From positions 840,001 to 872,000 of the forward strand of contig OY776328.1 in assembly GCA_963675515.1 (NCBI GenBank): a stretch of DNA of 32,000 nt, written 5' to 3'. Positions 3,714-31,398 of the stretch are shown here, one piece after another. A model generated the notes under the pieces. It searched no databases. It saw nothing but the letters and a program-made list of their open reading frames with translations, and had not been told where the DNA came from. The DNA comes from Coprobacillaceae bacterium (GTDB lineage: Bacteria > Bacillota_I > Bacilli_A > Erysipelotrichales > Coprobacillaceae). The translations under genes and the position numbers were made by a program. Position 1 is the stretch's first letter. The number at the start of each line of letters is the position of its first letter.

Positions 3714-3825
3714 AAAAGATAACAATGTCGACGGATCCGAGTTCCATAGGGCTTTCGTTCCAGTTGAACAAAATCGGTTTTTGAAGCCGGCTTTACTCAA
3801 GTACGAATATATAAGGAGGGAAGAC

Positions 3826-4710: not shown

Positions 4711-4745
4711 TTGCAACCTTTTGGTTATAACCCGATAGCTTTTCG

Positions 4746-4768
4746 AGACTTCTATGAAGTCTTTTTTT
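4746..4768 (+). terminator. Hairpin plus T-run between the LysR gene and the AKR gene
   Basis: AGACTTC-tat-GAAGTCT is followed by TTTTTT. The stem is short (7 bp), so this could be a weak terminator or an attenuator. Confidence 0.45.
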
Positions 4769-4796
4769 GTATTATGATGGTTTTAGGAGGAATGGA

Positions 4797-5765
<969 letters not shown>

Positions 5766-5833
5766 TAAATAGAGCCTCAAATTACATTTAGAAAACCAAA
5801 CAAATCGGATTATTCGATCTAGGAGGAAACAAA

Positions 5834-7087: not shown

Positions 7088-7112
7088 AATTCTCCGGTTT
7101 CTTATTTTCCTG

Positions 7113-7143
7113 TTGACATGGAGTCGGCTCCATCATTTATGAT
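7113..7143 (+). promoter_or_regulatory. MerR-type promoter P1 (19-bp spacer) upstream of the UPF0303 gene
   Basis: The sequence is TTGACA-tggagtcggctccatcatt-TATGAT. The spacer is exactly 19 nt. The dyad ATGGAG-tcgg-CTCCAT (7118-7133) sits inside the spacer. Confidence 0.65.
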
Positions 7144-7191
7144 GTATCCGGACAAAGAAAATTGGTAAAATTAAACTAGGAGAAATCGACA

Positions 7192-7689
7192 ATGGAGAAC
7201 TACTATCACTATTTTGCGGCCAAAAAGGATCTGCCAAACAAGGCCGATATATTGCAACAGGAAGATAATCTTCACTTTGGTGCATTCGACCGCGACGCGG
7301 CCTTGACTCTGATCAACATAATCGTGGCCAATGCCAAAGAAGCGAACAAGAGCGTGGCGGTGCGGATCATGATTGGTGATGATCTGACCGGGCAGTATTT
7401 CATGGAAGGGGTTGATTTTCTCAACGGTCTTTCATGGCTCGAACGGAAGGAAAAGGTGGTAAGACTAAGTGGCCATAGCTCATACTACACCTTCCTGTCG
7501 AACATGGATGAACATCTTTATGATGATCTGATCTTCGATGAATCTTATGGCTTTGTGGGAGGCGGCTTTCCCATCATCGTGCAGGATGTAGTGATCGGCA
7601 CAGTGACTGTGACAGGACTCCGCCACAATGAGGACCATGAACTGGTCGTCACCGCCCTTGATATGTTTAAACAAAGCGCAGGATATTGA
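7192..7689 (+). CDS. UPF0303 / GlcG-HbpS-like (heme-binding/degrading domain) protein
   Basis: 165-aa ORF with an AGGAG RBS. The C-terminal part GGGFPIIVQDVVIGTVTVTGLRHNEDHELV is typical of this family, as I recall it. Confidence 0.6.
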   Translation: MENYYHYFAAKKDLPNKADILQQEDNLHFGAFDRDAALTLINIIVANAKEANKSVAVRIMIGDDLTGQYFMEGVDFLNGLSWLERKEKVVRLSGHSSYYTFLSNMDEHLYDDLIFDESYGFVGGGFPIIVQDVVIGTVTVTGLRHNEDHELVVTALDMFKQSAGY

Positions 7690-7877
7690 CAATACCATAA
7701 ATATGTCAATTTCTTGATTGAAAGGCGATTATGTAAATTGCCTAAGCAAACGTTTAAAGATAAGATTGTTATAACCCTATGACCGAAAGTCCTGGATGCC
7801 GGTAAATTCCAATAATTGAAGATTGCTCCGTAAAACCATTTGCACCTTGGAAGCGGAGCTAAGATAAAGGAGTCATT

Positions 7878-9206
7878 ATGAGATTCACAAACAAAGATCT
7901 GAAAAATATGATCATTCCCCTGTTTTTCGAGCAGCTTCTGGTGATGCTTGTGGGTATCGCCGATACGTTCGTGGTAAGCTACGTCGGCGAGTCCGCCGTA
8001 TCGGGAGTTTCACTGGTAAACATGTTCAACACTATCTTCATCTATCTGTTCACCGCCCTGGCTTCAGGTGGCTCGATAGTCATCTCCCAGTATATCGGGA
8101 ACTGGCAAAAGGATGACAGTGTCAAGGCTTCCAGCCAGCTGCTGATGTTCTCGGCGGTGTTTTCGACAGTCATGGCGGTTTTGATCCTGATGGTCGACAA
8201 ATGGCTGCTGGCTCTGATGTTCGGTTCAGTCGAAGCGGCCGTCATGGAAGCCTGCCTTGTCTATCTGAAAATCAGCGCACTGTCTTATCCGGCCCTGGCA
8301 ATCTACAATGCGGGTGCGGCCATGTACCGCTCGATGGGAAAAACCAGTGTCACGATGTATATTTCAATCGTGGCAAATTTAATCAATGTCGTTGGGAACC
8401 TGGTCGGGGTATTCGTTTTGAAAGCCGGAGTGGCCGGGGTTGCTTACCCTTCGCTGATGGCCCGGGTGTTCAGTGCCCTGGCGATAACCTGGCTATGTTT
8501 CAATAAGAAGAACATAACCTACTACAAGAAACAATGGATTCTCTACTGGGATAAGTCAATCATCAGTAAGATCATGGGTATTGCGGTTCCCAACGGCATC
8601 GAAAGCGGCATCTTCCAGCTGGTGAAGGTTGCCCTGTCGAGCGTGGTCACCTTGTTTGGCACCTACCAGATCGCCGCCAACGGGATTGCCCAGAGCATCT
8701 GGTCACTGGCGGCCCTATCCGGGGTGACGATGGCCCCGGTCTACATCACGTTGATCGGGCAGTGCATGGGGGCCCAGGATCTCGAGGGGGCGAAGTACTA
8801 TTTCAAGAAGCTCACCAGGATGACGTTGTTGTTCTCGGTAGGGTGGAACATCTTCATTTTTGCGATCAACCCATTTATCATGCAGTTCTACAACCTTTCG
8901 ACCCAGACAGTCAACCTGGTCATCTGGCTTGTCGCCATCCACAACATCTTCAACACCGTCGTCTTCCCGTTTTCGGGACCGCTGTCGAACGGCCTGCGGG
9001 CGACCGGGGATGTCCGGTACACGATGATCGTCTCGATCGCATCGACGGTGTTGGGCCGGTTCATCTTCTCGATCATCTTCGGGATTTATTTCAACCTCGG
9101 GGTTATCGGTATCGCCTTGGCGATGTGTCTTGACTGGACCATCCGTGCCGTTGTCTTCTTCTTGAGATACAGATCGGACAAATGGCAGCAGTTCAAGATC
9201 ATCTAG
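7878..9206 (+). CDS. MATE family efflux transporter
   Basis: 442-aa, 12-TM-like ORF. The N-terminus, including IIPLFFEQLLVMLVGIADTFVVSYVGESAVSGVSL, is characteristic of MATE. AAGGAG RBS is present. Confidence 0.85.
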   Translation: MRFTNKDLKNMIIPLFFEQLLVMLVGIADTFVVSYVGESAVSGVSLVNMFNTIFIYLFTALASGGSIVISQYIGNWQKDDSVKASSQLLMFSAVFSTVMAVLILMVDKWLLALMFGSVEAAVMEACLVYLKISALSYPALAIYNAGAAMYRSMGKTSVTMYISIVANLINVVGNLVGVFVLKAGVAGVAYPSLMARVFSALAITWLCFNKKNITYYKKQWILYWDKSIISKIMGIAVPNGIESGIFQLVKVALSSVVTLFGTYQIAANGIAQSIWSLAALSGVTMAPVYITLIGQCMGAQDLEGAKYYFKKLTRMTLLFSVGWNIFIFAINPFIMQFYNLSTQTVNLVIWLVAIHNIFNTVVFPFSGPLSNGLRATGDVRYTMIVSIASTVLGRFIFSIIFGIYFNLGVIGIALAMCLDWTIRAVVFFLRYRSDKWQQFKII

Positions 9207-9276
9207 GACAAGACAAGCCAAAATTGATTTAAAAACAAGGTTCGAGCAGTTTAGACGATGATTCGACAATAATGCC

Positions 9277-9331
9277 GCATGCAAGCATATCACTCAGGAT
9301 TCAATCAGTTTCCTGACTGGCATGCTTTTTT
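9277..9331 (+). terminator. Rho-independent terminator after the MATE gene
   Basis: An interrupted hairpin GCATGC..CACTCAGG-loop-CCTGACTGGCATGC is followed by TTTTTT. Confidence 0.7.
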
Positions 9332-9374
9332 GTCTTTTTGAAGATGTTATGGCGGAAATTTTAAGAATCGTTTT

Positions 9375-9403
9375 TTGCATTCGGTGACCATAAATGATAA
9401 AAT
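9375..9403 (+). promoter_or_regulatory. Sigma-A-type promoter with extended -10 for the crt-like operon
   Basis: TTGCAT, then a 17-nt spacer ending in TGa, then TAAAAT. It lies about 48 nt upstream of ATG 9451. Confidence 0.6.
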
Positions 9404-9450
9404 TGAATTATGAAACGCAGTCAATGTAGGAATTGAGTGAGGTGTTATTT

Positions 9451-11058
9451 ATGGAAATAAAAAGAAATTTTGATGTGATAGTGGTCGGGGCCGGGATGGC
9501 AGGGTTGAGCGGAGCAGCCTACCTTTGTAAAAACGGATACGATATCTTGCTTCTCGAGAAAAACAGCGAAGTCGGCGGGCTGGTTGGCTCGTTTGAGCGC
9601 AACGGTTTCCATTTTGATGCCGGAGCCCGGGCGCTTGAGAACTCCGGGGTCATTTTCCCGATGCTAAAACAGCTGGGGATGAAGATGGAATTCGTCAAAA
9701 ATGAGATCAGCATCGGTCTGGAAGACGATTTCATCATTCTCAAGGATATAGAGAGCATTGATGACTATCGCAAGCTACTTGAAAGGCATTTCCCCGGCAA
9801 TATAGAAGACATTTCCGCCATCATCAAGGAAATCAGGAAAGTAGTCGGCTACATGGAGGTCATCTACGGCATCGACAATCCCCTGTTCAGCGATTCGATG
9901 GATGATCCCGATTATCTGTTCAGGACAATCCTGCCATGGCTGGTAAGGTATCAGATCAACATCAAAAAAGCCATGAGGTTAAATCTGCCAATAAAAGAAT
10001 ATCTGGGAAAATACACCAAAAATCAGGCGCTGATCGATTTCATCTCCCAGCATTTCTTCGCCAAAACGCCGACGTTTTTTGCCCTTAGCTATTTCGGGCT
10101 TTACCTTGATTACCATTATCCAATTCAAGGCACCGGAGATCTGGCGTTGAAACTCAGGGATTATATAGTTGAAAATGGCGGCACGATAGTTACAGATACC
10201 AGGGTGGATAGGATAAATATCGACGACAAGAAAATAGTTACGTCAACCGGAGAAGAATACGGTTTTAAGAAACTAGTCTGGGCAGCCGACAACAAGGCGT
10301 TGTACGATTCAATCGATTCAGCCGATCCAATAACGAACATGGCGGTGGAAAAACACAAGATCAGGACTGCCCGGGCCAAGGGAGGCGATTCGGTTCTGTC
10401 TGTCTTCCTGTCGGTCGATAAGGACAGCGAATATTTTGGCTCCATTTCAAGTCCCCATGTTTTCTACACCCCGACCAAGGCAGGGATAAGTTCCATCGAT
10501 GCGATGCCGGAAACAGGAAGTGCCACCAAGGATCAGATACTAAGATGGCTGCATGATTATCTTTGCAACACGACCTATGAGATTTCGATCCCAAACCTGC
10601 GCAACCCCTGGCTGGCCCCGGAAAACCAGACCGGACTGATCGTATCCACGTTGATGGACTACAGGCTGATCGAGCATATCGCCGCAACTGGCTGGTACGA
10701 ACAGTTCAAGGAATTTGCGATCAATGAAATTGTCAATGTTCTGGAACGGTCGCTTTATCCTGGCCTTGGTGAACGCATTGTTGAACAAAGCTGCGCCACC
10801 CCTTTGTCAATCGCGAACCACTGCGGCTCTTTCGAGGGGGCGATCACCGGCTGGTCATTCGAGAATCATCCGCTGCCCTGTGTCAGTGATCTCAAGAAAA
10901 TCGCGAAGGCGGTTGAAACCGAATTCCCCGACATCTTGCAGTGTGGCCAATGGACGTTCTCACCTTCGGGGGTCCCGGTAAGCATCATCACCGGCAAGCT
11001 GGCCAGTGACCGGATCGCCAAAGGGCTTGGGGCTAAAAAAGGTGACAAGGATGTTTGA
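9451..11058 (+). CDS. Phytoene-desaturase-family (CrtI/CrtN/CrtP-like) FAD-dependent oxidoreductase
   Basis: The track start at 9433 is TTG, so ATG 9451 after GAGG is preferred. The dinucleotide fold is FDVIVVGAGMAGLSGAAYL..LLLEKNSEVGG. The C-terminal GQWTFSPSGVPVSIITGKLASDRI resembles the family's C-terminal FAD motif. Confidence 0.75.
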   Translation: MEIKRNFDVIVVGAGMAGLSGAAYLCKNGYDILLLEKNSEVGGLVGSFERNGFHFDAGARALENSGVIFPMLKQLGMKMEFVKNEISIGLEDDFIILKDIESIDDYRKLLERHFPGNIEDISAIIKEIRKVVGYMEVIYGIDNPLFSDSMDDPDYLFRTILPWLVRYQINIKKAMRLNLPIKEYLGKYTKNQALIDFISQHFFAKTPTFFALSYFGLYLDYHYPIQGTGDLALKLRDYIVENGGTIVTDTRVDRINIDDKKIVTSTGEEYGFKKLVWAADNKALYDSIDSADPITNMAVEKHKIRTARAKGGDSVLSVFLSVDKDSEYFGSISSPHVFYTPTKAGISSIDAMPETGSATKDQILRWLHDYLCNTTYEISIPNLRNPWLAPENQTGLIVSTLMDYRLIEHIAATGWYEQFKEFAINEIVNVLERSLYPGLGERIVEQSCATPLSIANHCGSFEGAITGWSFENHPLPCVSDLKKIAKAVETEFPDILQCGQWTFSPSGVPVSIITGKLASDRIAKGLGAKKGDKDV

Positions 11059-12148
11059 TATTGCGATGACGATTGCCGGTATCGCTGCCAGCTGGATCCT
11101 TTTCTTCCGGTTTCCATTTTTGAAAAACGTCACCTCTGTCAAGGGTGATAAGCTCGGTAATGTGAGTGTGATCATTCCGGTCCGCAATGAACAGGAAAAT
11201 ATCGGCCGCCTGCTTGACGACCTGCTTGGTCAAAGCGTGAAGGCAAAGCAGATCATCTGTGTCAACGACGGTTCCACTGACCAAAGCGCCGCGATCATTT
11301 CCGGTCATCCGGTCACCCTGATTGACGTCGACAATAAACCCGAAGGCTGGATTGGCAAGTCGTATGCCTGTTATCTGGGGGCAAATCATGCCAAAGAGGA
11401 TCTGCTGCTTTTTGTCGACAGCGATGTCCGGCTCGAAAGCAATGCCCTGGAAAAGCTGCTAGAAGCCTACAATGAACATGGATTGCCTGTTTCTATCCTG
11501 CCCTGTCATCTCATGGAAAAGCCTTTCGAACAGATGTCTATTTTCTTCAATCTGGTCCAGGTAGCCGCCAACGGCGCCGCCTTGGTCATCGATGGCCAGC
11601 AGGCGGGCCTGTACGGTCCAGTCATCATGATCGACAGGGCAACATACGACAAGATCGGGACACACGAAGCGATCAAAGGCAGCATAGTCGATGATGTGGC
11701 CCTGGGCAGCCGGCTCAAATCAAAAGGATACAGTTTCAGGCTGTATCTTGGCAAAGGTGTGATATCCTATCGGATGTACTCTTCCTTACGGAGTCTGTTT
11801 CAGGGCTGGATCAAGAACTACGCCACCGGTGCCCAGTATGCACCGGCACTAGTTGCCTTGCTTACCTTCTTGTGGGTGGCCTCTTTGTTGACGACTTCGC
11901 TGGGGCTGGCAAAGATGGTGATCGGAGGTTTTGCAGAGGTCAGCTGTTTTTTCATCCTGGCTTATCTGGTCTGGATTGGCGAACTGTTCCGGATTTCTCC
12001 CAAGATCGGGAATTTCAAAACTTCCACAATCATCCTGTTTCCTGGATATGTCGCTGTCTTTGTGGTGGTTTTCCTGATTTCGGGGTTCAAAAAAATATTC
12101 CGACTTCCGGTTGTCTGGAAGGGTCGGAAAGTAAGGGTGGTGAAATAA
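11051..12148 (+). CDS. crtQ: GT2 glycosyltransferase, CrtQ-like (4,4'-diaponeurosporenoate glycosyltransferase family)
   Basis: ATG 11051 overlaps the upstream stop (ATGTTTGA), which suggests translational coupling. Motifs seen are VSVIIPVRNEQENIGRLL, CVNDGSTD, GWIGKSYACYLG, FVDSDV, YRMY..L.SLFQGW.KN..TGA and VVWKGRKV. These match my recollection of S. aureus CrtQ. Confidence 0.7.
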   Translation: MFDIAMTIAGIAASWILFFRFPFLKNVTSVKGDKLGNVSVIIPVRNEQENIGRLLDDLLGQSVKAKQIICVNDGSTDQSAAIISGHPVTLIDVDNKPEGWIGKSYACYLGANHAKEDLLLFVDSDVRLESNALEKLLEAYNEHGLPVSILPCHLMEKPFEQMSIFFNLVQVAANGAALVIDGQQAGLYGPVIMIDRATYDKIGTHEAIKGSIVDDVALGSRLKSKGYSFRLYLGKGVISYRMYSSLRSLFQGWIKNYATGAQYAPALVALLTFLWVASLLTTSLGLAKMVIGGFAEVSCFFILAYLVWIGELFRISPKIGNFKTSTIILFPGYVAVFVVVFLISGFKKIFRLPVVWKGRKVRVVK

Positions 12149-12149
12149 G

Positions 12150-12650
12150 ATGCGCATATTTTACTTCGATTCCCTGACCACCATCATCATCTGTTTTGTC
12201 CTTTGGGCGGTTTTGGGTCTTGTCGCCATGGAGATCACATTTCTGATTCCGGACAGCTTCTATCGGGTCGACAACTGGATGTTCAAAACCTATGCCTGGG
12301 AAAAAGACGGCGTGATCTATGAAAAGCTGTTCAAGGTCAAAAAATGGAAACATCTTTTACCTGATGGGGCCCGTTATGTAAAGCGGGGTTACCGCAAAAA
12401 GAACCTGCAAGACAGCTCGAAAGAAAATCTTGAGTTGTTCGTACTTGAAACCTGTCGGGCTGAGCTGACCCATGTCCTGGGCGCCTTGCCTTTCTGGGTG
12501 TTCGGATTTTTCATCGAACCTGAAGGCGTCCTGATCATGCTTGGCTACGCGATCATTGCCAACCTGCCTTGCATCCTGGTCCAGCGTTACAACAGAATCC
12601 GGCTGACTAAGATACTTGCAAAAAAGAAAAAGGCAGTTCCCGGTTTATGA
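12150..12650 (+). CDS. crtO: CrtO-like membrane acyltransferase (glycosyl-4,4'-diaponeurosporenoate acyltransferase family)
   Basis: 166-aa membrane ORF starting 2 nt after the GT2 stop. KKWKH, ETCRAELTH and LVQRYNRIRLTKIL match motifs I recall from S. aureus CrtO (from memory, not searched). Confidence 0.6.
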   Translation: MRIFYFDSLTTIIICFVLWAVLGLVAMEITFLIPDSFYRVDNWMFKTYAWEKDGVIYEKLFKVKKWKHLLPDGARYVKRGYRKKNLQDSSKENLELFVLETCRAELTHVLGALPFWVFGFFIEPEGVLIMLGYAIIANLPCILVQRYNRIRLTKILAKKKKAVPGL

Positions 12651-12670
12651 TCGGACCGGAACTGCCTTTT
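12632..12670 (+). terminator. Rho-independent terminator ending the crt-like operon
   Basis: GGCAGTTCCCGG-loop-CCGGAACTGCC (one bulge) is followed by TTTT. It overlaps the stop codon at 12648-12650. Confidence 0.75.
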
Positions 12671-12732
12671 GGGCCTTGTGAGAGTTGAACGAAGGAATTG
12701 TGGAATCTGAAACGCTTTTGTGAAAAATGTAT

Positions 12733-12763
12733 TGACTTAAGTTGACTCTAAGGGCGTATACTC
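12733..12763 (+). promoter_or_regulatory. MerR-type promoter P2 (19-bp spacer) upstream of the AKR/Fe-S gene
   Basis: The sequence is TTGACT-taagttgactctaagggcg-TATACT. The spacer is 19 nt and contains CTTAAGTtgACTCTAAG. Confidence 0.65.
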
Positions 12764-12783
12764 GAAAATAGGAGGGCTTTTAC

Positions 12784-13902
12784 ATGACATATACATTTGA
12801 AGATATCAAAGAATTAGGTTTCGGTCTGATGCGGCTGCCTAAGAGTGGCGATAGCATCGACATCGAACAGACCAAGGTTATGGTTGACAAGTTCATGGCG
12901 GCGGGATTCACTTATTTCGACACGGCTTGGGCTTATTCAGGCAGCGAAGATGCCATCAGACAGGCATTGGTTGAACGCTATCCAAGGGAATCCTATCAGC
13001 TGGCAACCAAAAATGCGGCCTGGATTAACTGCAAGAGCAGGGAAGAGGCCATCGACCAGTTCAACACCTCGCTAAGACAGACCGGAGCGGGCTACTTCGA
13101 CTTCTATCTGCTCCATAACCTGGGTGAGGCAAGAACCCACTATTTCGACGATTTCAAGATGTGGGACTTTGTCCAGGAGAAAAAGGCTGAAGGGCTGATC
13201 AAGCATGTCGGTTTCTCGTTCCACTCGACTCCAGAAGAGCTCGAGGAAATCCTTATCCAACATCCGGAAATGGAATTTGTCCAGCTGCAGATCAATTATG
13301 CCGACTGGGAAAATCCGGCTATCCAATCACGGGCCTGTTATGAGGTTGCCCGCAAATACAACAAGGCGGTCATCGTCATGGAACCGGTAAAAGGTGGCAT
13401 GCTTGCCACTCCGCCTGAAACCGTAGCCAAGGTGTTCAAGGACGCCAACCCGGATGCTTCGATGGCATCGTGGGCGATCAAGTTCGCTGCCAACCTCGAT
13501 GGCGTGGTCACTGTCCTTTCAGGGATGAGCAACATCGAGCAGATGGACGACAACCTTTCGTACATGAAGGACTTCGAGAAACTGAGCGGAGAAGAAATGA
13601 AAGTAATCGAAAAGGCGCAGGAAGAGTTGAGCAAGATCGACATCATTCCTTGCACCACATGCGATTACTGCGCCAAGGTGTGTCCGATGGATATTGGAAT
13701 CTCGGGATCATTCACTGCGATGAACGTGCATATCATATACGGGGACAAGGCAAAGGCCCAGGCTCAGGAAAACTGGCTGGTTACCAGACATGGCAAGAAA
13801 AGGGCAGACGAATGCATTAAATGCGGAGCCTGCGAGGATGTCTGTCCGCAGCATATCCAAATTCGACAACAGCTCGACCGGGTTGTTTCAGAATTGTTCT
13901 AG
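12784..13902 (+). CDS. Aldo/keto reductase fused to a C-terminal 2x[4Fe-4S] ferredoxin-type domain
   Basis: 372-aa ORF with an AGGAGG RBS. The AKR N-terminal part carries FTYFDTAWAYSGSE, LATK and FYLLHN. The C-terminus carries CTTCDYCAKVCP and CIKCGACEDVCP. Confidence 0.8.
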   Translation: MTYTFEDIKELGFGLMRLPKSGDSIDIEQTKVMVDKFMAAGFTYFDTAWAYSGSEDAIRQALVERYPRESYQLATKNAAWINCKSREEAIDQFNTSLRQTGAGYFDFYLLHNLGEARTHYFDDFKMWDFVQEKKAEGLIKHVGFSFHSTPEELEEILIQHPEMEFVQLQINYADWENPAIQSRACYEVARKYNKAVIVMEPVKGGMLATPPETVAKVFKDANPDASMASWAIKFAANLDGVVTVLSGMSNIEQMDDNLSYMKDFEKLSGEEMKVIEKAQEELSKIDIIPCTTCDYCAKVCPMDIGISGSFTAMNVHIIYGDKAKAQAQENWLVTRHGKKRADECIKCGACEDVCPQHIQIRQQLDRVVSELF

Positions 13903-13931
13903 AGAGTTTACAACAACTCTCTTTTTTTTTG
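13901..13931 (+). terminator. Rho-independent terminator
   Basis: AGAGAGTT-tacaac-AACTCTCT is followed by T9. It overlaps the stop codon. Confidence 0.8.
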
Positions 13932-14155
13932 TCACCTCATAACCGCCGACGTTTCTAGTTGGGGATGGTTGATTCGCACCCTTCATCATGATATAGACAA
14001 AAAGCCTCCATAGAATTGCCGTGGATCAAAGACAATTCAATGGAGGTGGTCTTGCATTTACTTGTCAGTGAAAAGCTTAGAGATCATTGTCTTTACGGCT
14101 ATGTTTGCGGGCGGGATTATTTTTGTCATCGATGACATGATTTAGAATATCCTTT

Positions 14156-14494
14156 TCATGGTCGACCTTGTTTTAAATAGGCGACCCGAAGTTGCGCCTG
14201 AACCAGCTGCTCTTGAGCCAATTCAAGCTGGGATTGGACCAGTTCATATCTTTTCGCAACTGCCTCATCGCCTGACTCGAAGCAAAGATCTTCATATTCC
14301 TTGATGGCTTCCAGCGACATTCCCAGTTCGCGCAGGTATATCACCCCTTTGAGCCAGTCTATTGCTTCGTCATCGAAAACCCGGCGGTTGTTTTCATCCC
14401 GCTTAAGGTTTGGAACAAGCCCCAGGTTTGTATAATAACGCAGGGTGTGGATTGATATATTGAGAATTTCGCTTACCTCTTTTGGCAGATACAT
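14156..14494 (-). CDS. Small MerR-family transcriptional regulator (paralog 1)
   Basis: 112-aa ORF with a GGAGG RBS. The wHTH is MYLPKEVSEILNISIHTLRYYTNLGLVP...NRRVFDDEAIDWLKGVIYLRELGMSLEAIKEY. It has a coiled-coil tail and no C-terminal ligand domain. Confidence 0.85.
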   Translation of the reverse strand: MYLPKEVSEILNISIHTLRYYTNLGLVPNLKRDENNRRVFDDEAIDWLKGVIYLRELGMSLEAIKEYEDLCFESGDEAVAKRYELVQSQLELAQEQLVQAQLRVAYLKQGRP

Positions 14495-14590
14495 AGGTTT
14501 TCCTCCATTTTCATGATTTGATTAATATCGATGGACTCGAGACTAAAGATTGCTTGATTCACGATAATTACCCGGGCAATTGCCATTTGA

Positions 14591-15004
14591 TTATCTGTCT
14601 TTTTGGGATTTCCTTTTTGCCGGGTTTTTGGTGTCCTGACTCTCGTCTTCAAGGATATCCTTTTCATTGGCGACAGCCTTTTCCAGATAGCTGATCCTTA
14701 TTTTGGCCTTTTCGAGTTCCGCTTTCGCATTCTCCAGCTGCTTTGATATGATTTCCAATCTTTTTTTCTTGGCATCTTTGCCATCCTTCTGGCAAAGTGA
14801 GATGAATTCCTTGATGTCGTCAAGAGGCATTCCCAGTTCACGGAAATACTTGGTTCCCTTGAGCCATTCGATCGACTCTTCATCGAAAACCCGGCGATTG
14901 TGCGAGTCACGCCTCAAAGATGGGACCAAGCCTTCGTCGCAATAATAGCGGATTGTATGTTGGGAAAGTTCCAGGATTTCGCTTGCTTGTTTTACGGTAT
15001 ACAT
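14591..15004 (-). CDS. Small MerR-family transcriptional regulator (paralog 2)
   Basis: 137-aa ORF with a GGAGG RBS. The wHTH is MYTVKQASEILELSQHTIRYYCDEGLVP...NRRVFDEESIEWLKGTKYFRELGMPLDDIKEF. It has a Lys/Glu-rich tail. Confidence 0.85.
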   Translation of the reverse strand: MYTVKQASEILELSQHTIRYYCDEGLVPSLRRDSHNRRVFDEESIEWLKGTKYFRELGMPLDDIKEFISLCQKDGKDAKKKRLEIISKQLENAKAELEKAKIRISYLEKAVANEKDILEDESQDTKNPAKRKSQKDR

Positions 15005-15030
15005 GTTTTTCCTCCAGGTTAAAAAAATGG

Positions 15031-15061
15031 TTGACTGAGAGTAACTCTAATACCTTAATAT
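15031..15061 (+). promoter_or_regulatory. MerR-type promoter P3 (19-bp spacer), divergent from MerR paralog 2 and facing the MFS gene
   Basis: The sequence is TTGACT-gagagtaactctaatacct-TAATAT. The spacer is 19 nt with a perfect dyad AGAGT-a-ACTCT. Confidence 0.7.
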
Positions 15062-15207
15062 CATTCTAGCATCTTCTTGTGCCAATGGAAACAGGATATT
15101 TCCTGTGACTATAAAGGCGACCAGCTTAATCATAGATGGGTCTGGACAGTCGATGCGAACTTATCGTTGTCATCAGGCAATGATTCTATTGTGAAAGGAA
15201 ATCAAAG

Positions 15208-16365
15208 ATGAAAAACAAGGTTTTAATGAATTATATCGCAATCCTCTCGCTGTTTTTGTTTGCGGGGGCGGGAACATTTGAAAACCCCGGAGTCCAGGCG
15301 ACCATAGAAGCCTGGCCGAAGATTGCCAATTCGACAATCCGGATGATGATCACCCTGCCAAGTCTGGTGAGCACCATCACCATGATCCTGGTTGGCCGGA
15401 TTGTAGGCAAGAAAATAAGTTACCGCAGAGTCTGCATCCTGGGGGCTGCAATGATATTGATCGGGGGACTCGTTCCGTTTTTCTTCCATCCTGATTGGTA
15501 TCTTGTATTAGGATTCCGGGCGCTGCTTGGAGTAGGAGTCGGATTCTTCTCGGTTAGAAATGCGTTGCTTATCAAGGAAGTTCCAGTGGAATCTCTGGCT
15601 AAATACATCGGTTATGGCAGCGTCCTGGCAAGTCTGATGACGGTCATTGTCTCGCCGGTTGTCGGGCGCCTGGTCGCTTTTGGATGGCAGTATGCAATGT
15701 TGGGCAATCTGGCCGTTTTGATAAGTGTTGTATTGGTTGTCCTTTTCTTGCAGGAACCGGCCGACGATGAGACTGTCGAAGAAATCGAGCCAGTCGGTTC
15801 AGTTCCCAAAGTCGTGTATTTATACATCTTCATCCAGTTTTTAGCGACCATGGTCCTCTATCCGGTGCTGTCGGGAATGTCTTCGTATCTGGGAGCGATT
15901 GGGATCGATAATGCCACAATCGCCGGTTACATGTTATCGCTCTACACCATTGGTGGTGTTATCTCCAATACTTTTCTGTCTGGCATCCTAAAACTGTTCA
16001 AGAAAAACACATTGTTCATGGCCTTGATGACTACGGCTTTGGGCAATGCGTTGATCATTTTTACGGGCAACATCATCATGATTGGGATTGGGACGATGCT
16101 TTCGGGAGTCGGGTTCATGATTCTCTTCTCGCTGATGCAGATTTTCAATGGCCGGGTCTGTGATCAAAGGATAATCGCCCAGACTTCGACGATGATCCTG
16201 GCCGCAAGCCAGCTGGGAGTGTTCTTGTCGAGCTACTTTATCGAAGGCGCAGTAAAGATCAATCTTTTTGAGATTGAGATATTGAATACGTACTTTATAT
16301 GCATGTTAACCTATCTTGTACTGGGTGCAGTGGTGTTTGTTTTTAAAAGAATAATCATCAAGTAA
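15208..16365 (+). CDS. MFS transporter
   Basis: 385-aa polytopic ORF, the only long ORF in this interval. Confidence 0.7.
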   Translation: MKNKVLMNYIAILSLFLFAGAGTFENPGVQATIEAWPKIANSTIRMMITLPSLVSTITMILVGRIVGKKISYRRVCILGAAMILIGGLVPFFFHPDWYLVLGFRALLGVGVGFFSVRNALLIKEVPVESLAKYIGYGSVLASLMTVIVSPVVGRLVAFGWQYAMLGNLAVLISVVLVVLFLQEPADDETVEEIEPVGSVPKVVYLYIFIQFLATMVLYPVLSGMSSYLGAIGIDNATIAGYMLSLYTIGGVISNTFLSGILKLFKKNTLFMALMTTALGNALIIFTGNIIMIGIGTMLSGVGFMILFSLMQIFNGRVCDQRIIAQTSTMILAASQLGVFLSSYFIEGAVKINLFEIEILNTYFICMLTYLVLGAVVFVFKRIIIK

Positions 16366-16748
16366 CAGATAATTTGTCTTAATCTTGAATTGATCTCAAA
16401 ATCTTGCTTTGCCTGTAAAGGTGAATTCGCATTCCAAATTTTCCTTGACTTAAATAATATGAAGATTAGGAATTAACTGAGTGATGAAGCCCGCCATATA
16501 TTTTGAAAATGTAATGATGCTTTTGAATGACCACATGGCTCAGGTTGAAATTTTCAGTTGTGAAATATAGAAATTTTGTCACTCAAAAACGCACCAAATT
16601 TCTACATACTAGATAAAATACTATCCTTTCACAAACCAAAAGACATGCTCCTGTGGCATATGGTCATTCAAGATGATGCTTAAGAGTTTCACTATTTTCA
16701 GATACTATGTGTGCTTGGACCAATTAGCGATTATATGTGAAAAATTGA

Positions 16749-16779
16749 TTGACTTAGAGTTATATTGAACCATTATAAT
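16749..16779 (+). promoter_or_regulatory. MerR-type promoter P4 (19-bp spacer) upstream of the flavodoxin gene
   Basis: The sequence is TTGACT-tagagttatattgaaccat-TATAAT. The spacer is 19 nt. The left half-site TTAGAGT is conserved and the right half is degenerate. Confidence 0.55.
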
Positions 16780-16906
16780 GGATGTAGAAGGGACATTCAT
16801 GTCATGGTTGTCATAAATTTATTTGTAGGTTCAAAAAGCCTAATTGGGGCACAAAATCTGTCCAATTGAATGACCTTAATTGCGAATAGGAAAGGAAGAA
16901 TATGAA

Positions 16907-17392
16907 ATGAGCAAGAAGATATTAGTTACTTATTTTTCATGCAGTGGTGTTACAAGGGAATTGGCGGGTCAAATATCAACCGAGGTTGATGGTGACTTGT
17001 TTGAAATCGTACCGGAGGTGCCGTATACCAATGCGGATTTGAACTGGATGAATGATAAATCCCGTAGCAGCATTGAGATGAAAGATCCATCATCTCGGCC
17101 GGTAATTGCCAGCAAGATCGATGATTTTTCCAAATATGATACAGTGTTTATCGGATTTCCGATCTGGTGGTATACATTCCCTTCAATCATCAACACGTTC
17201 CTTGAAAGTTACGATTTCAACGGCAAAACAATCATCCCATTTGCCACGTCGGGCAGCAGCGGTCTGGGGCAGATTGAGCAGCATTTCAAAAAAGCCTGCA
17301 AGGGCAATGTGTTCTGGAAAAAAGCGGAAGTATTCAAAGGTGGTTCTTCCCATAAGCAATTGATAGCATGGCTGGAAAATCTAAATATTTGA
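16907..17392 (+). CDS. Flavodoxin-family protein
   Basis: The track start at 16880 is TTG, so AAAGGAAG plus ATG 16907 is preferred. The N-terminus MSKKILVTYFSCSGVTRELA is an FMN phosphate-loop type. FIGFPIWWYTFP is also present. Confidence 0.8.
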   Translation: MSKKILVTYFSCSGVTRELAGQISTEVDGDLFEIVPEVPYTNADLNWMNDKSRSSIEMKDPSSRPVIASKIDDFSKYDTVFIGFPIWWYTFPSIINTFLESYDFNGKTIIPFATSGSSGLGQIEQHFKKACKGNVFWKKAEVFKGGSSHKQLIAWLENLNI

Positions 17393-17527
17393 GTATGATA
17401 ATTTGATTCAACGAGTTGATTTTTCATCGCTTGTTATCATGCGTTTCATGCATGCTTGATAATAAACGATAGGCATTGGACATGACTGGTAGCTTGAGAT
17501 AAGATGGAGTTATAGGGAGGCTCATAT

Positions 17528-18742
17528 ATGAAAAACAAAAGCATGAAACACTGGCTGGTGATGGTCGTCTGCTGCGGGATGGCGGCAGCATCCATCGGTG
17601 TGTCCATCAATTCCTCAGGGGTGTTCTACAGCCCGGTGGCAACAAGTCTGGGAGTTTTGCGCGGCAACTTTGCCTTGCATATGACCATATTTCTGATATC
17701 GAGTGCCCTGGGGTCGTTGATGGTCACTTCGATATTGAAGAAAGTGTCATTCAAGCTGATGCTTGTGATTGCAGTCGGGGTGATTGTCGGTGCGACAGCA
17801 TTGATGGCTCTGGCGACCAATCTTTTGATGTTTTATATCCTTGGGGCGATCCGAGGGTTCGCCGCCGCGATGTTTTCCATCGTCTCATTGTCAATCATCA
17901 TCAACAACTGGTTCGAGGCCAGACATGGCACCGTAACCAGCATCGTTTTTGGTTTCAGTGGCCTTTCCGGTGCTCTCTTTTCACCGATTATCGCCTCAGT
18001 TATTGAAAAATGGGGCTGGCAGGTCGGTTATCTGGCAATGGCCGGGTTCATTCTGGCATTATGTCTGCCTGCCATCATCTATCCGTTCCACCTTGATCCC
18101 AAGAAGGACGGTCTGGTAGCCTATGGTCATGAAGAAAATTCGCAGCACAAAATGGATGTGGAAGATTTCAAGTTCAATTTCAAAGCCGGATACTTCTGGA
18201 CTTTCATTGTTTTTGGGGTAATCTGCTCCTCGATAACAAGCGTGACCCAACATTTGCCAGGATATAGCACTTCGCTGGGATTCTCTTTGGAGACTGGTGC
18301 GGCCTTGCTTTCAGCTGGAATGATCGGGAATATCATCTCCAAAATAATCCTTGGCCTGTTGAGTGATAAGATTGGAGCCCTTAAGGCGACCCTGGCAATG
18401 TTGGCATTCAACACCCTGGGTATTGTGCTTTTGATTTTGGGATCATCGACAATGCTTTTAACCGGCGGGGCATTCATGCTCGGTTTTTCATACGCAGTCG
18501 GGGCAGTGGGGCTGCCACTTTTGACCAAGTATTATTTTGGCTTGGAAATGATGGCCGATGTCTTCCCCAAGATTTCATTCGCATCAAGCATCGGGGCATC
18601 TATTTCCCTGACCCTGGTCGGCTATGTCTATGATTACTTCGGGTCCTATCTCTATGCGTTCTATATAGCATTGGTGCTGATTGTCATAGCCCTTGTTGCC
18701 TTGATGGTTACAACTTTATTAGTCAAGAGAGTAAATGCATAG
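17528..18742 (+). CDS. MFS transporter (oxalate/formate-antiporter-like or monocarboxylate-type architecture)
   Basis: 404-aa, 12-TM-like ORF with a GGGAGG RBS. Confidence 0.7.
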   Translation: MKNKSMKHWLVMVVCCGMAAASIGVSINSSGVFYSPVATSLGVLRGNFALHMTIFLISSALGSLMVTSILKKVSFKLMLVIAVGVIVGATALMALATNLLMFYILGAIRGFAAAMFSIVSLSIIINNWFEARHGTVTSIVFGFSGLSGALFSPIIASVIEKWGWQVGYLAMAGFILALCLPAIIYPFHLDPKKDGLVAYGHEENSQHKMDVEDFKFNFKAGYFWTFIVFGVICSSITSVTQHLPGYSTSLGFSLETGAALLSAGMIGNIISKIILGLLSDKIGALKATLAMLAFNTLGIVLLILGSSTMLLTGGAFMLGFSYAVGAVGLPLLTKYYFGLEMMADVFPKISFASSIGASISLTLVGYVYDYFGSYLYAFYIALVLIVIALVALMVTTLLVKRVNA

Positions 18743-18765
18743 TTCTTAATAAGAAGATCAAAAAA

Positions 18766-18803
18766 AATCGCGTTCGACATAATAAATTCGAGCGCGATTT
18801 TTA
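18766..18803. terminator. Bidirectional terminator between convergent genes
   Basis: AAATCGCGTTCGA-loop-TCGAGCGCGATTT (one G-U pair) is flanked by an A-run on the left and a T-run on the right. Confidence 0.75.
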
Positions 18804-18879
18804 TTTGTGAATCAATATTTTTGATTCGTAGATCCTTGCGAGCGGATTAATCTAATTCGATGAATTTTCGTGTAGTGGA

Positions 18880-19784
<905 letters not shown>

Positions 19785-19833
19785 ATAGCGATAGGTAAGA
19801 CTTTGATGTTATCTCCATCTTTTCCCCCGCTCC

Positions 19834-19867
19834 ACACCGTGCATGCGACTTTCACCGCACACGGCGT
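19834..19867 (-). ncRNA. Group II intron domain V
   Basis: The minus-strand sequence is ACGCCGUGUGCGGU-GAAA-GUCGC-AU-GCACGGUGU. This is a 34-nt hairpin with a GAAA tetraloop and a 2-nt bulge. It is position-for-position comparable with the canonical GAGCCGUAUGCGAUGAAAGUCGCACGUACGGUUC. Confidence 0.75.
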
Positions 19868-19883
19868 TCCATCTAATTCTTCT

Positions 19884-21678
19884 TTAATTTATTTCAGTTA
19901 AATTACATCTCTTACGCAACATGTTCAGTTTTTTAAGCTGTGTTTTGTTTAGATTGAACTTTTTCAATAGCGTTTTTTCAGTTTCCTGATTATTACCGTG
20001 TATTAGTTTATGTACTTCTTTGTGAATAATGATTAGATTGTCAAAATTATCGGTTCCACCATCTCCAACGGAAACAATGTGATGACAGTGTATTTCCTCG
20101 GCCGTTAGAAACAACTGGGTGATTCCACAACGCCCTTTTTGCATTGAATACTTTGAGATTGTGTTATCCCGATATTCCACACTTCCGTTTCCAATTGGCA
20201 GTTCCAGCAACCTCTTCATAACTGAGGTTACATTATTTTCTAATCGTTTATAAACTAATTTGCGCCCCTCTTGGGTATAGTTGCATATGTTTTGATTGAA
20301 GTTTGTCTTCAATTTCCACTGCGTATCCGCCAGTGGAAACAATGAAATGGCTCCAATCGTGAATGTGCGATAGTTATTCTTAAATAACTTCTTATACAAC
20401 GGTGGGGGACTCCTGGGTACTTCATATTTAGCTATTGGTTTCAATCGGTTGTACAAGGTCTTGAGCGTCTGATGGTAAACATTTCTAAAATCTATATTTA
20501 CATGTGTTGCAGCTTCATAATAATTTCTTATCCCCAGTATATATGAATTATAATTGTGGATATTCTTGGAAATTGTATGACGCTGTATCTCGATAACTCT
20601 TTTCCTTATTTCCGCTTTGATTTTTATTTTACTTTTCGCCGATACAAAGGTATTCGCAACGTACTTCTTGCGCTTTGGTACCAGCTTCATTTCAAACCCC
20701 AAATAGTCCGACCTACGTTTCCTTAGATTGGTAATCTTTGACTTTTCAGGTGAAACATTAAGTTTAAGTTCATTCTTCAGATATTCCTTGACCGCATGAT
20801 ATATCCTTACCGCATTTTTATAACTGCAAGTGAAGACTCGTGCGTCATCGGCATACCTTACCGCATACATTTCTTTTAGATTGGTTTTCTTGAGTACTCT
20901 ATACTTATATGGACATTTATAATCAGCATTGAATGTTTCCCATTGATTGCTTATCCACCAGTCCAGATCGTTCAACACTACGTTTGAAAGTAATGGCGAA
21001 AGCACTCCTGCCCTGTGGTGTCCCACAGTGTGGGACACCTACTCCTTTGATGGGAGCTTTCAGCATTCTACTTATAATCGTCAGTACCTGATTATCCTTG
21101 ATGCCGATATTCCAAAGTTGTTTGATTAACTTGGTATGATTGACATTGTCAAAGAACGATTCGATATCCAAATCAACAACATAGTGATTGTGCGTCATAT
21201 TGGCGATATGGCAACATCTTGACAAAGCATTATGGGTTGAGCGATTGGCTCTAAATCCATATGAATGCTTATGAAACTTCGCTTCGCAGATTGGTTCAAG
21301 TATCTGTTTGAACATCTGTTGAATCAGTCTGTCATGCATCGTTGGTATTCCCAATGGTCGTAATTTTCCATTAGGTTTAGGTATTTCTACTCTTCTTACC
21401 GTTTTTGGTTTATAGTCCAATAGCGATAGTCTAATATCCTGAATAAATTTCTCAACGTTTTCTATCTTGTAATCATCAATAGTAAGGCCGTCAGTGCCTT
21501 TTGTGTGACTTCCGGTGTTGCTTTTGATGTTTCGATAGGCGAGGAGTATATTGTTCCTGGATATCACCAGATTATAAAGATCTATCCCGTAAGTATCATT
21601 GTTTAAACTCATTTGATACAACCAGTCAAAAGTTTCCTGCATACTGTAATATTCGTTGTTTCGTAATCCCGTGCTCAC
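19884..21678 (-). pseudogene. Intron-encoded protein (RT domains 0-7, X/maturase, D/HNH endonuclease) disrupted by a 1-nt frameshift near 21009
   Basis: ORF 21678-20923 ends with ...KAPIKGVGVPHCGTPQG followed by out-of-frame residues. ORF 21038-19884 carries GVLSPLLSNVVLNDLD...YADD...CHHIV..GGTDNFDNLIIIHKEVHKLIH. The GTPQG and GVLSPLL blocks are separated by a single extra base. The start is GTG 21678 or ATG 21642. Confidence 0.75.
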
Positions 21679-22348
21679 CGATGGATTATTCCTTTCGTTT
21701 AGAACAATTGTTTCCCATCATCTTATCAGACCCTGTGAGCTTCATTTAACTGTAACTGATTTTTAAAGAACCAGACTTGGGGCTATCCCTCCACCATTTT
21801 TCGTGGCTTCATCGGTACTGTGCCCCTACTTTCACGAGAATAAAAACACTTCGTTTACACTTATAGTTACCGTCCCGATAACAGTCGTTTAATAGACGTT
21901 TCTCGCTTACAACGTTCCAAATATTCTAGCTTTACATTTATCCTTAGGTTCCTGCTATGAGCCTGATGAATTATACCCTCATTGTCGAGTATCTCGAATT
22001 TCATATCAACGATTCTTACTTTTCGATATTCATCGTTGCGCACGCAACATGCCACCTTTCAATAGCACGACTTTCTAGACCCGTACATTCGCAGTTTCGT
22101 CAGTCCTTACACGGACATTCTCACCATAGATAATTTATAGCGTCCCGGCCTATCCTTTACCATATGATATATCACTTAGGTATTGTTCAGCCGACTTCAC
22201 CTAGCTTCACACATAATTTTACTGTTATAACCTCATGCGTGTAGGAGTATCAGACTACTTGTTTCAGGCTAACATGACAGCCATCATTCCAAGTATTGAA
22301 TATTCAGTTGTGATTTTCCTATTGGAAAATCCTCCCATTTCATGCCTA

Positions 22349-22981
<633 letters not shown>

Positions 22982-23239
22982 TCATTCATGAAATCCCGGA
23001 TAGGTGAATCTTACTAAATTATAGAGAAGAAACTGAAAAGGGTTGCATATTTTCGCAAATAGAAATAGTTAGGTAAACTGTGTGTGAATGGATAGTATTC
23101 CAAATGGCTTTATGTTGCCTATTTTTAAGATAGGGAGCAGATTTGAAATGTTTAAATGTGAAAATAATATTGATTTTTGATAATGCAAACATCAGGACAT
23201 ATTTTAAAAACACTAGCTACTATTAATCAAATAGGTGAA

Positions 23240-23248
23240 TGCTATAAT
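23240..23248 (+). promoter_or_regulatory. Extended -10 promoter element (TGcTATAAT) for the alpha-galactosidase gene
   Basis: This is a perfect TGnTATAAT. The -35 is weak. It lies about 175 nt upstream of ATG 23425. Confidence 0.55.
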
Positions 23249-23255
23249 AATTGTG

Positions 23256-23269
23256 CGAAAGCGTTTACG
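23256..23269 (+). promoter_or_regulatory. cre-like (CcpA) or LacI-family operator just downstream of the -10
   Basis: cGAAAGCGTTTACg matches TGWNANCGNTNWCA at all specified positions except the two outermost bases. Its position over the predicted transcription start fits repression. Confidence 0.5.
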
Positions 23270-23424
23270 GTGTTGTCTATTCCATGAAGTATATTTTTAT
23301 TGGATTTCTGGACTTGGAATAATGGAAGAACTAGTGCATTGAAGAAGGATGACAAAAAATTGCCATCATGGTTCCATATTATAAGATAAGGCAACAATTT
23401 TGAAATGACGAAGAGGAGGATAAG

Positions 23425-25650: not shown

Positions 25651-25656
25651 TAATGA

Positions 25657-25697
25657 AAAGAAGGAACTCCGCATAACTTATCGGTTCCTTCTTTTAG
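25657..25697 (+). terminator. Rho-independent terminator
   Basis: AAGAAGGAAC, a 16-nt loop and GTTCCTTCTT are followed by TT. Confidence 0.7.
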
Positions 25698-25860
25698 TTG
25701 TAATCAATTATTCAAATTTTTTCCAGGATTAATAGGGTTAAATAATCAAGACGCCGTGCCTGGATAACTACAAGCAAGGCTCCAAGAATGCATAATATAT
25801 CAATATTGAATACATGAACTAGGCTTAGATGAAAAAAATAGTGAAAAAATCAAAAAACAT

Positions 25861-25891
25861 TTGACTTAAAGTTAACTTCAAGTGTTATTCT
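25861..25891 (+). promoter_or_regulatory. MerR-type promoter P5 (19-bp spacer) upstream of the alpha/beta hydrolase gene
   Basis: The sequence is TTGACT-taaagttaacttcaagtgt-TATTCT. The spacer is 19 nt. It carries an 18-bp near-perfect palindrome CTTAAAGTTAACTTCAAG (8 of 9 pairs). Confidence 0.65.

Positions 25892-29916: not shown

Positions 29917-31398
<1,482 letters not shown>

Follow-up and report, generated by a model that had tools for sequence, protein, structure and literature searches.

The window analysed here, a stretch of 32 kb from a Coprobacillaceae bacterium (contig OY776328.1, positions 840,001 to 872,000), contains five promoters, P1 to P5, whose spacers between the -35 and -10 hexamers measure exactly 19 bp. 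They lie in a patch of detoxification-type genes, which comprises aldo-keto reductases (AKRs), a flavodoxin-like flavoprotein, an alpha/beta hydrolase and exporters of the MFS and MATE families. A preliminary description of this DNA had gathered all five promoters into a single regulon under the tandem MerR genes at 14156-15004. Comparison with other genomes points to a different arrangement, in which the five promoters represent at least three operator types and would probably be served by several MerR regulators instead of forming one regulon. The claim of a single regulon is unsupported because the sites are separated both by the geometry of their operators and by two independent cross-genome matrices, and only the operators that we term class A match the regulators of the window. 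The promoters as such are ordinary members of the known MerR promoter type.

Promoters With a 19-bp Spacer

Exact matches to TTGAC[AT]-N19-TAnnnT on both strands of the window number six, against 0.54 expected (standard deviation 0.81, largest value 3) from 100 dinucleotide-preserving shuffles of the window, none of which reached six. The rough earlier estimate was of under one chance match. When the same hexamers are combined with spacers of 14 to 22 bp, the window yields 3, 1, 0, 0, 1, 6, 0, 1 and 1 matches, respectively; the 19-bp spacing is specific, as the neighbouring spacers of 16-18 bp are nearly empty. All six matches fall outside the main open reading frames (ORFs), which occupy 82% of the window and leave 18% outside, and five of them precede a gene in the correct orientation. 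The five sites described previously are present with the sequences quoted for them, except that P2 starts at 12732 and not at 12733, and their intergenic position facing genes for a UPF0303 protein, an AKR with a [4Fe-4S] domain, an MFS transporter, a flavodoxin and an alpha/beta hydrolase is borne out by Pfam and NCBIfam gene calls and by the ORF positions. The same holds for the general theme of the genes, namely reductases, flavoproteins, a hydrolase and exporters.

The sixth match, which is absent from the earlier list, reads TTGACT-N19-TATCAT (TTGACTGCGTTTCATAATTCAATTTTATCAT, 9424-9394 on the minus strand) and points at the MATE gene, into its 3' end and terminator region; downstream of it there are only ORFs of 25-28 amino acids. 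Its arms agree at 2/8 positions with a 1-nt centre and at 4/8 with a 2-nt centre, which amounts to no dyad, and the site probably arose by chance or belongs to an unrelated promoter. This site illustrates that one chance match is plausible at 0.54 expected. That all of the promoter-like hexamers co-occur by chance is nevertheless extremely improbable, given the shuffles, the nearly empty neighbouring spacers, the intergenic position and orientation of the matches, and the homologous counterparts that P2, P3, P5 and the orthologue of P4 possess in other genomes; the promoters of the foreign homologous loci have identical spacing. A relaxed scan of the window, which allowed one -35 mismatch, spacers of 19-20 bp and several dyad registers, returned no additional convincing site; its match at 30503 on the minus strand lies inside a GH1 gene and was discarded.

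Dyads were scored as matches between 8-bp arms around a 1-bp or a 2-bp centre, for which the calculated chance of at least 6/8 matches in one register of random sequence is about 0.004. With a 2-bp centre the arms match at 6/8 positions in P1 and at 7/8 in P5, while with a 1-bp centre they match at 6/8 in P3 and, marginally, at 5/8 in P2. P4 reaches 3/8 in either register and retains a left half-site alone, which is no operator dyad. A dyad at every site, as previously proposed, is thus present in P1, P3 and P5, marginal in P2 and missing from P4, and the proposed relatedness of the dyads is loose, since the centre measures 1 nt in the dyads of P2 and P3 and 2 nt in those of P1 and P5.

P3, P2 and the MerR-Aldo-Keto Reductase Module

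The cross-genome comparison drew on 166 fetched loci in total, designated here by L numbers. For class A these were the best 80 of 430 relatives found in a scan with one genome per species; their regulators are 42-52% identical to MerR-1, the upstream member of the window's MerR pair, and they stem from Bacillales, Paenibacillaceae, Clostridia and Erysipelotrichales. About 70 of the 80 have the regulator gene divergent from a promoter of the consensus TTG(A/C)CTTCG(A/T)GTnAC(A/T)CGAAGG-N3-TAnnnT, mostly 10-50 bp from the regulator ATG; in a few loci the promoter has the same orientation and lies upstream or downstream of the regulator. The operator, a 17-bp palindrome with 8-1-8 geometry, has its first base at position 5 of the -35 element and stops 4 nt short of the -10. 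Among 73 distinct foreign cases, the first gene downstream of such a promoter encodes an AKR in 66, an FAD monooxygenase in 4 and an MFS transporter in 2, and at least 4 of the class A-driven AKRs carry a ferredoxin fusion. The common 283-amino-acid AKR behind these promoters appears, by reading of its consensus, to be of the YvgN/YtbE/DkgA kind. Two class A promoters near one regulator occur in several foreign loci, such as L045, L070 and L080.

P3 (15031-15061, plus strand) shows the same design. Its -35 TTGACT (15031-15036) and its -10 TAATAT (15056-15061) enclose the operator CTGAGAGT-A-ACTCTAAT at 15035-15051 in the layout TTGA, CTGAGAGT, A, ACTCTAAT, ACCT, TAATAT. The promoter starts 26 bp from the MerR-1 start codon, in divergent orientation, and faces an MFS transporter gene (15208-16365, plus strand; Pfam) whose start codon lies 146 nt past the -10. 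A position weight matrix (PWM) built exclusively from 54 distinct foreign sites that adjoin foreign MerR homologues, and scanned on both strands, ranks P3 first in the window with 14.8 bits and P2 second with 12.2 bits, as compared with shuffle maxima that average -1.3 and reach 9.7 at most. P4 receives 4.2 bits and P5 1.5 bits, and P1 is outside the top twelve. P3 thereby unites geometry, position and the top matrix match of the class A module, and MerR-1 shows its complete set of protein features.

P2 (12732-12762, plus strand; -35 TTGACT, -10 TATACT at 12757-12762) precedes a gene for an AKR fused to a 4Fe-4S dicluster domain (AKR-Fer4; 12784-13902, plus strand; Pfam). Read in the class A register, it comprises a weak left half CTTAAGTT, a central G and a right half ACTCTAAG at 12745-12752 that is followed by GG. 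Homologues of its target gene are the divergent partners of the MerR homologue behind class A promoters in six loci, with identities of 72-75% in L006, L007, L025, L033 and L048 and of 49% in L004, and a column-by-column comparison with these foreign AKR-Fer4 promoters shows a shared register for the ACTCTAAG half, the trailing GG and the 4-nt distance to the -10. Within the P2 region at 12732-12752, TTGACT is also directly repeated (12732 and 12742) and ACTTAAGT forms a perfect palindrome (12735-12742); these features might derive from a 1-bp deletion in an ancestral left half-site.

As a by-product of this comparison there emerges a widespread Bacillota module that combines a sensor-less MerR protein (invariant His16 and Cys71, D-x2-NP tail) with an AKR behind CTTCGWGTnACWCGAAG. 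It is a candidate carbonyl or electrophile sensor that would operate without the canonical NmlR cysteine. Literature searches for MerR together with aldo-keto reductase found no description of such a module, and a full-text search for the box sequences returned unrelated primer matches only; BapR of C. difficile is an unrelated, BmrR-like MerR protein.

MerR-1 and MerR-2

The two regulator genes of the window lie on the minus strand. MerR-1 (14591-15004, 137 amino acids; Pfam MerR_1, E=1e-18) belongs to the class A subfamily and contains His16, Cys71 and the C-terminal D-x2-NP tail. MerR-2 (14156-14494) is a paralogue with 53% identity to MerR-1 and has 112 amino acids as encoded, or about 137 if its frame is repaired. 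It lacks the D-x2-NP tail solely because of a frameshift, as the tail is readable in the next frame: three-frame translations place NKVDHEKDILNHVIDDKNNPARKHSRKDNDL* out of frame at 14077-14172, with one extra base in an A-run near 14166-14172, and in a tblastn search residues 111-136 of MerR-1 align to 14166-14089 with 50% identity. The +1 frameshift may stem from an error in the sequence or, alternatively, from a recent inactivation or truncation. Judged from the first 108 residues, four of the six AKR-Fer4-associated regulators (L006, L033, L048 and L004) are among the closest foreign kin of MerR-2, and this kinship fits an arrival of MerR-2 together with the P2 gene, about 250 bp downstream of which it lies in convergent orientation.

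A gap of just 96 bp separates the two genes, which may therefore be co-transcribed. A consensus scan suggests a candidate merR-1 promoter (TTTCCA, 17 bp, TGcTAGAAT) at 15063-15091 on the minus strand, which overlaps P3 and whose transcript would pass through the P3 operator, as in the mer operon; autoregulation is therefore suggested. Upstream of merR-2 (14495-14590) a possible class A remnant, TCTCGAGTCC, shows a weak resemblance by eye and received no support from the PWM, and we do not retain it. No third MerR gene was found by tblastn in the window, and none lies near P1, P4 or P5.

The dyads had been likened to boxes of NmlR/AdhR-type regulators, in which the sensing cysteine is absolutely conserved across the NmlR clade (Cys54 of HiNmlR, Cys52 of B. 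subtilis AdhR; PMC4776306, PMC5001606). The kinship itself holds, as judged from the protein sequences, in that MerR-1 and MerR-2 fall into a sensor-less branch related to NmlR, but these are not NmlR/AdhR proteins in the strict sense. Against the NCBIfam NmlR equivalog NF041849, with a cutoff of 175 bits, they score 68.6 and 64.5 bits, as compared with 76-90 bits for the foreign regulators of classes A and B. The column equivalent to HiNmlR Cys54 holds Tyr in both (GTKYFRELGM in MerR-1, GVIYLRELGM in MerR-2); across 83 class A members it holds Y in 46, C in 19 and H in 11. By comparison, His16, which is located in the recognition helix of this subfamily, and Cys71 are invariant in all 83 members, and the C-terminal D-x2-N-P motif is conserved. 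The targets in the window are AKR-Fer4 and MFS genes, and control of a thiol-dependent formaldehyde dehydrogenase of the adhC/adhA type, with or without estD, is not seen. A search of the PDB with the MerR-1 family profile returned 3GPV (E=1.2e-30 over 126 residues) and the HiNmlR structures (E=2e-28) as top matches.

P5 and P4

P5 (25861-25891, plus strand; -35 TTGACT, -10 TATTCT) carries the operator CTTAAAGT-TA-ACTTCAAG at 25865-25882 and faces the alpha/beta hydrolase gene (DLH/Peptidase_S15-like by Pfam; 25941-26915, plus strand). We take its core AAGTTAACTT to resemble the SoxR box. The class B sample consists of 80 metagenome loci (L087-L166) from a scan with this hydrolase, the orthologues being 70-78% identical. 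In 15 of the 80, on gut-metagenome contigs, the operon starts with TTGACCTAAAGTCAGCTTTAGGT-N2-TAnnnT, and 2 of these 15 have a second copy of the box. This class B arrangement comprises a 19-bp spacer with an 18-bp palindrome of 8-2-8 geometry that ends 3 nt before the -10, usually followed by an ORF of about 180 amino acids, which reads like an FMN reductase, and then by the hydrolase gene. In all 14 class B loci in which the regulator ORF was recovered, a divergent MerR gene encodes the cysteines of the motifs 'VIECLK(R/K)(S/A)G' and 'WC', the former at the Cys54 position of NmlR and the latter next to Cys71. This regulator is 36-40% identical to MerR-1 and MerR-2. With a matrix made exclusively from 12 distinct foreign sites upstream of P5-hydrolase orthologues, P5 scores 30.1 bits, while the shuffle maxima average 7.0 and reach 15.6 at most; P1 follows with 13.0, P4 with 9.9 and P2 with 4.5 bits, and P3 is outside the top eight.

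At least 7 of the 80 hydrolase loci (L089, L091, L093-L097) show promoters that look Bacteroidetes-type and have no MerR gene; they are therefore uninformative on P5. The hydrolase gene occurs in very varied contexts throughout L087-L166, and at least seven contigs with the apparently Bacteroidetes-type promoters have upstream of it a flavodoxin-like gene that seems to begin with a signal peptide, which suggests that the gene has spread widely by horizontal transfer.

P4 (16749-16779, plus strand; -35 TTGACT, -10 TATAAT) keeps the left half-site CTTAGAGT at 16753-16760, which the right half TATTGAAC does not match. Its target encodes a Flavodoxin_4-family flavoprotein (about 16907-17392, plus strand; Pfam and NCBIfam), to which the 161-amino-acid protein P0073 is 100% identical, and is followed by an MFS gene (17528-18742). 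In the Logan contig L081, a close relative with 79-90% nucleotide identity over aligned blocks, the orthologous flavodoxin gene (81% identical) is preceded by TTGACATAAAGTTAACTTGAACTGGTATAGT, which has a 19-bp spacer and the AAGTTAACTT core as in P5 (TTGACTTAAAGTTAACTTCAAG) and to which the class B matrix gives 18.6 bits. When the two otherwise diverged flavodoxin intergenic regions are aligned pairwise, islands of conservation stand out at the promoter block and at the ribosome-binding site. P4 is a real and conserved promoter, since this block has been kept between the window and L081. The block about 7100-16885 (some 9.7 kb), which contains P1, P2 and P3 with the genes downstream of them (HbpS-like and MATE, AKR-Fer4 and MFS, respectively) as well as three carotenoid genes and the MerR pair, is absent from the syntenic locus of L081 (3552-4085), and yet the flavodoxin promoter is kept there; it is therefore independent of adjacency to MerR-1 and MerR-2. 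Searches of Rfam found no riboswitch in the long leaders downstream of P3 and P4. The more distant flavodoxin homologues (57-61% identity, L082-L085) stand in unrelated contexts (LysR, MATE, TetR) without a P4 footprint and were set aside, which left the 81%-identical L081 as the one informative case.

The condition of P4 raises the possibility of partial decay, whereby P4, and perhaps P2, would by now be weak unregulated promoters with 19-bp spacers or would have passed to other factors, such as the nearby LysR. The 3/8 dyad of P4, set against the palindromic core of its L081 orthologue, is consistent with this, as are the 5/8 match of the P2 left half, the frameshift in its candidate regulator and the finding that distant homologues stand beside LysR-type regulators (flavodoxin in L082-L084, hydrolase in L002, L003 and L044). 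On the other hand, both promoters have kept perfect or near-perfect hexamers at exactly 19 bp, which is poor design without an activator; the promoter block of P4 is the best-conserved stretch of its intergenic region and P2 ranks second with the foreign class A matrix. We therefore regard decay as unlikely, while taking it seriously for these two sites.

P1

P1 (7113-7143, plus strand; -35 TTGACA, -10 TATGAT) carries the operator CATGGAGT-CG-GCTCCATC at 7117-7134. In the 8-2-8 register its dyad is perfect over arms of 6 bp (ATGGAG-N4-CTCCAT) and has a GG half-site that is unlike those of classes A and B; the core GGAGTCGGCTCC presumably resembles a ZntR box. Downstream there follow an HbpS-like/UPF0303 gene (7192-7689) and a MATE exporter gene (7878-9206), both on the plus strand and called by Pfam and NCBIfam. 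A single similar box was found among the 166 loci, namely TTGACTTGGAGTCGGCTCCAAG at 11287 on the minus strand of L042. A gene for a 162-amino-acid MerR protein with a cysteine in 'IACLKKTGM' diverges from this box, which faces an ORF for an apparent short-chain dehydrogenase, so that a third, AdhR-like regulator is a plausible partner for P1. Taken together, the proposal that the five sites are MerR-type promoters has good support at P3, P2 and P5, is plausible at P1 and is weak at P4.

One Regulon or Several Regulators

The single dispersed regulon, with MerR-1 and MerR-2 as sensors of the NmlR/AdhR type for all five promoters, has several observations in its favour. The sites share TTGAC(T/A), the 19-bp spacer and an (A/G)AGT...(A/G)CT(C/T) core at the same position relative to the -35; the left half of P4, CTTAGAGT, is the half-site implied by P2 and P3; the window contains no other MerR gene; and in L009 and L022 boxes of the 8-2-8 type lie a few kb from a class A regulator, no second MerR having been found. 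We nevertheless consider this regulon improbable. The half-sites are 1 nt apart in P2 and P3 and 2 nt apart in P1 and P5, and the cross-genome matrices separate the sites cleanly. Moreover, the MerR proteins that accompany orthologues of the P5 gene are of another subfamily (36-40% identical to the window pair), the flavodoxin promoter persists in L081, whose locus is without the MerR-1/MerR-2 block, MerR-2 is frameshifted, and both proteins are without the hallmark cysteine of NmlR.

A variant of the same idea would join classes A and B in one electrophile regulon by means of MerR-1/MerR-2 heterodimers, or of a tolerance for both 9-bp and 10-bp half-site spacing, with sensing by Cys71 and the D-x2-NP tail instead of the NmlR cysteine. 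It would cover the half-degenerate operators, as P2 has a good right half and P4 a good left half that equals the class A half-site of this genome. We hold this variant to be very improbable.

Several points weigh against the division among separate regulators that we favour. Every pairing of a regulator with an operator is drawn from comparison between genomes, and the regulators of class B and P1 are postulated to reside outside the 32-kb window; the assignment of P1 follows from the single foreign example in L042. Scanned with a dyad-only class A matrix, P3 is still the top site, at 11.0 bits, and falls inside the range of the shuffle maxima (mean 9.2, standard deviation 3.2). The half-sites of the window read TAGAG (TAGAG/TCTAA at P3) as against TCGWG in the family consensus, variants that are also found in L004, L016, L018, L052 and L059. 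The left half of P2 is poor, with 5/8 symmetry, and its candidate regulator MerR-2 is convergent and frameshifted, while at P4 the inner ACT of the right half has become TAT, so that the remaining left half-site may no longer confer regulation. Finally, the 8-2-8 boxes of L009 and L022 stand near a class A regulator and no other MerR gene was found in either locus; cross-recognition is therefore possible. If several regulators are indeed involved, two or more further MerR regulators would be expected in the genome outside the window.

These sites also bear on the annotation of genomes more generally. Strong hexamers, a 19-bp spacer and a dyad constitute a sequence-only signature that is able to map MerR-type promoters in an unannotated genome, and operator geometry combined with cross-genome pairing can separate overlapping regulons that look alike by eye.

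Proposed Mechanism and Relation to Known MerR Proteins

Under the reading with several regulators, near-consensus hexamers 19 bp apart would frame an operator that begins inside the -35 (TTGA|CTT...). By analogy with MerR, CueR, BmrR and HiNmlR, a dimer bound to the spacer would hold the promoter inactive as long as the dimer is neither modified nor liganded; on the signal it would untwist and bend or kink the spacer, thereby realigning the hexamers so that sigma-A can use both. Activation by distortion has been studied for MerR, CueR, BmrR, EcmrR and HiNmlR (PMC7722741, PMC8113463, PMC8169799, PMC9909328, PMC5001606). Class A operators (P3 and, more weakly, P2) would be read by the MerR-1/MerR-2 subfamily, a widespread Bacillota regulator of YvgN/YtbE-like AKRs, and the overlap of P3 with the likely merR-1 promoter would give autoregulation. 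Class B operators (P5, with P4 as a degenerate copy) would be read by a two-cysteine regulator similar to NmlR/AdhR and encoded outside the window, and P1, with its 8-2-8 operator and GGAG half-sites, by a further AdhR-like regulator that would likewise be encoded outside. The target genes and the invariant Cys suggest that the signals are likely to be reactive carbonyls, quinones and other electrophiles, perceived via cysteine.

HiNmlR, the Haemophilus influenzae protein HI_0186 (PDB 5D8C, 5D90 and 5E01), binds an operator that lies within a 19-bp spacer and whose inverted repeat includes the -35 (PMC5001606). Like HiNmlR, the MerR proteins of the window are short, lack a C-terminal ligand domain and have their proposed operator inside a spacer of 19 bp. 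The regulators that accompany class B boxes have a cysteine at the Cys54 position as well as a second one near position 71. The theme of electrophile and carbonyl detoxification is likewise shared with the NmlR/AdhR clade. Unlike HiNmlR, the class A proteins have Cys71 aligned one residue after HiNmlR Cys71 and an invariant His16 where HiNmlR has the base-contacting Tyr17, and the class A operator is an odd-length 8-1-8 palindrome. The targets of MerR-1 and MerR-2 also differ from those of the NmlR/AdhR clade, being AKRs and an MFS transporter and not adhC/estD.

The best structural relative of the class A family is 3GPV, a MerR-family regulator of Bacillus thuringiensis that has been termed NmlR (PMC5045206). 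The alignment reaches the start of the C-terminal tail; unlike the class A family, 3GPV has a cysteine at the Cys54 equivalent (LCLKNTGM) and no cysteine in the Cys71 column (DWSMEGD). It is a structural-genomics entry, for which functional or operator data were not found in the literature searched.

With MerR of Tn501/Tn21, CueR, ZntR, SoxR and BmrR the promoters of the window share a spacer of 19-20 bp and, P4 excepted and P2 marginally, a dyad operator inside it. Further likenesses to these classical systems are the divergent regulator with overlapping promoters (P3 and merR-1) and, by analogy, the proposed activation by DNA distortion (PMC7722741, PMC8113463, PMC8169799, PMC9909328). In contrast to them, the MerR proteins of the window have no metal-binding loop, [2Fe-2S] motif or drug-binding domain, and their targets are reductases, a hydrolase and exporters.

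Surrounding Genes

Mixed operator classes cluster in a foreign genome as well: in L009 (Clostridium algifaecis), a 12-kb locus contains, between 3000 and 11300, one class A promoter and three 8-2-8 promoters (4695, 7937 and 10226) together with the one MerR gene that was found. These promoters face an AKR gene; a flavodoxin and an AKR-Fer4 gene; an unknown 94-amino-acid ORF with a phosphoesterase gene; and an AKR-Fer4 with a flavodoxin-like gene.

Two LysR-type regulators flank the region in the window (3694-7087 and 27226-28104), and L081 shares the LysR-AKR-MFS unit at 3694-7087. In L002, L003 and L044, LysR takes the place of MerR as the partner of hydrolase or AKR homologues. Between P1 and P2, the operon at 9433-12650 encodes an FAD-dependent oxidoreductase of the desaturase/amine-oxidase type, a family-2 glycosyltransferase and a CrtO-type glycosyl-4,4'-diaponeurosporenoate acyltransferase, apparently tailoring genes for a C30, staphyloxanthin-like carotenoid.

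Downstream of the flavodoxin and MFS genes, a PTS/BglG/lactamase_B block present in L081 (5915-10043) is missing from the window between 18714 and 18882. A group II intron (19783-22376, minus strand) interrupts a GH1 glycosidase gene with flanks at 18880-19782 and 22346-22951; it is matched by the Rfam families RF02004 (22134-22312) and RF00029 (19785-19869), and its reverse transcriptase/HNH ORF is broken into two frames that overlap (19884-21038 and 20923-21678). The GH1 gene of L081 is uninterrupted (10042-11523) and represents the empty intron site.

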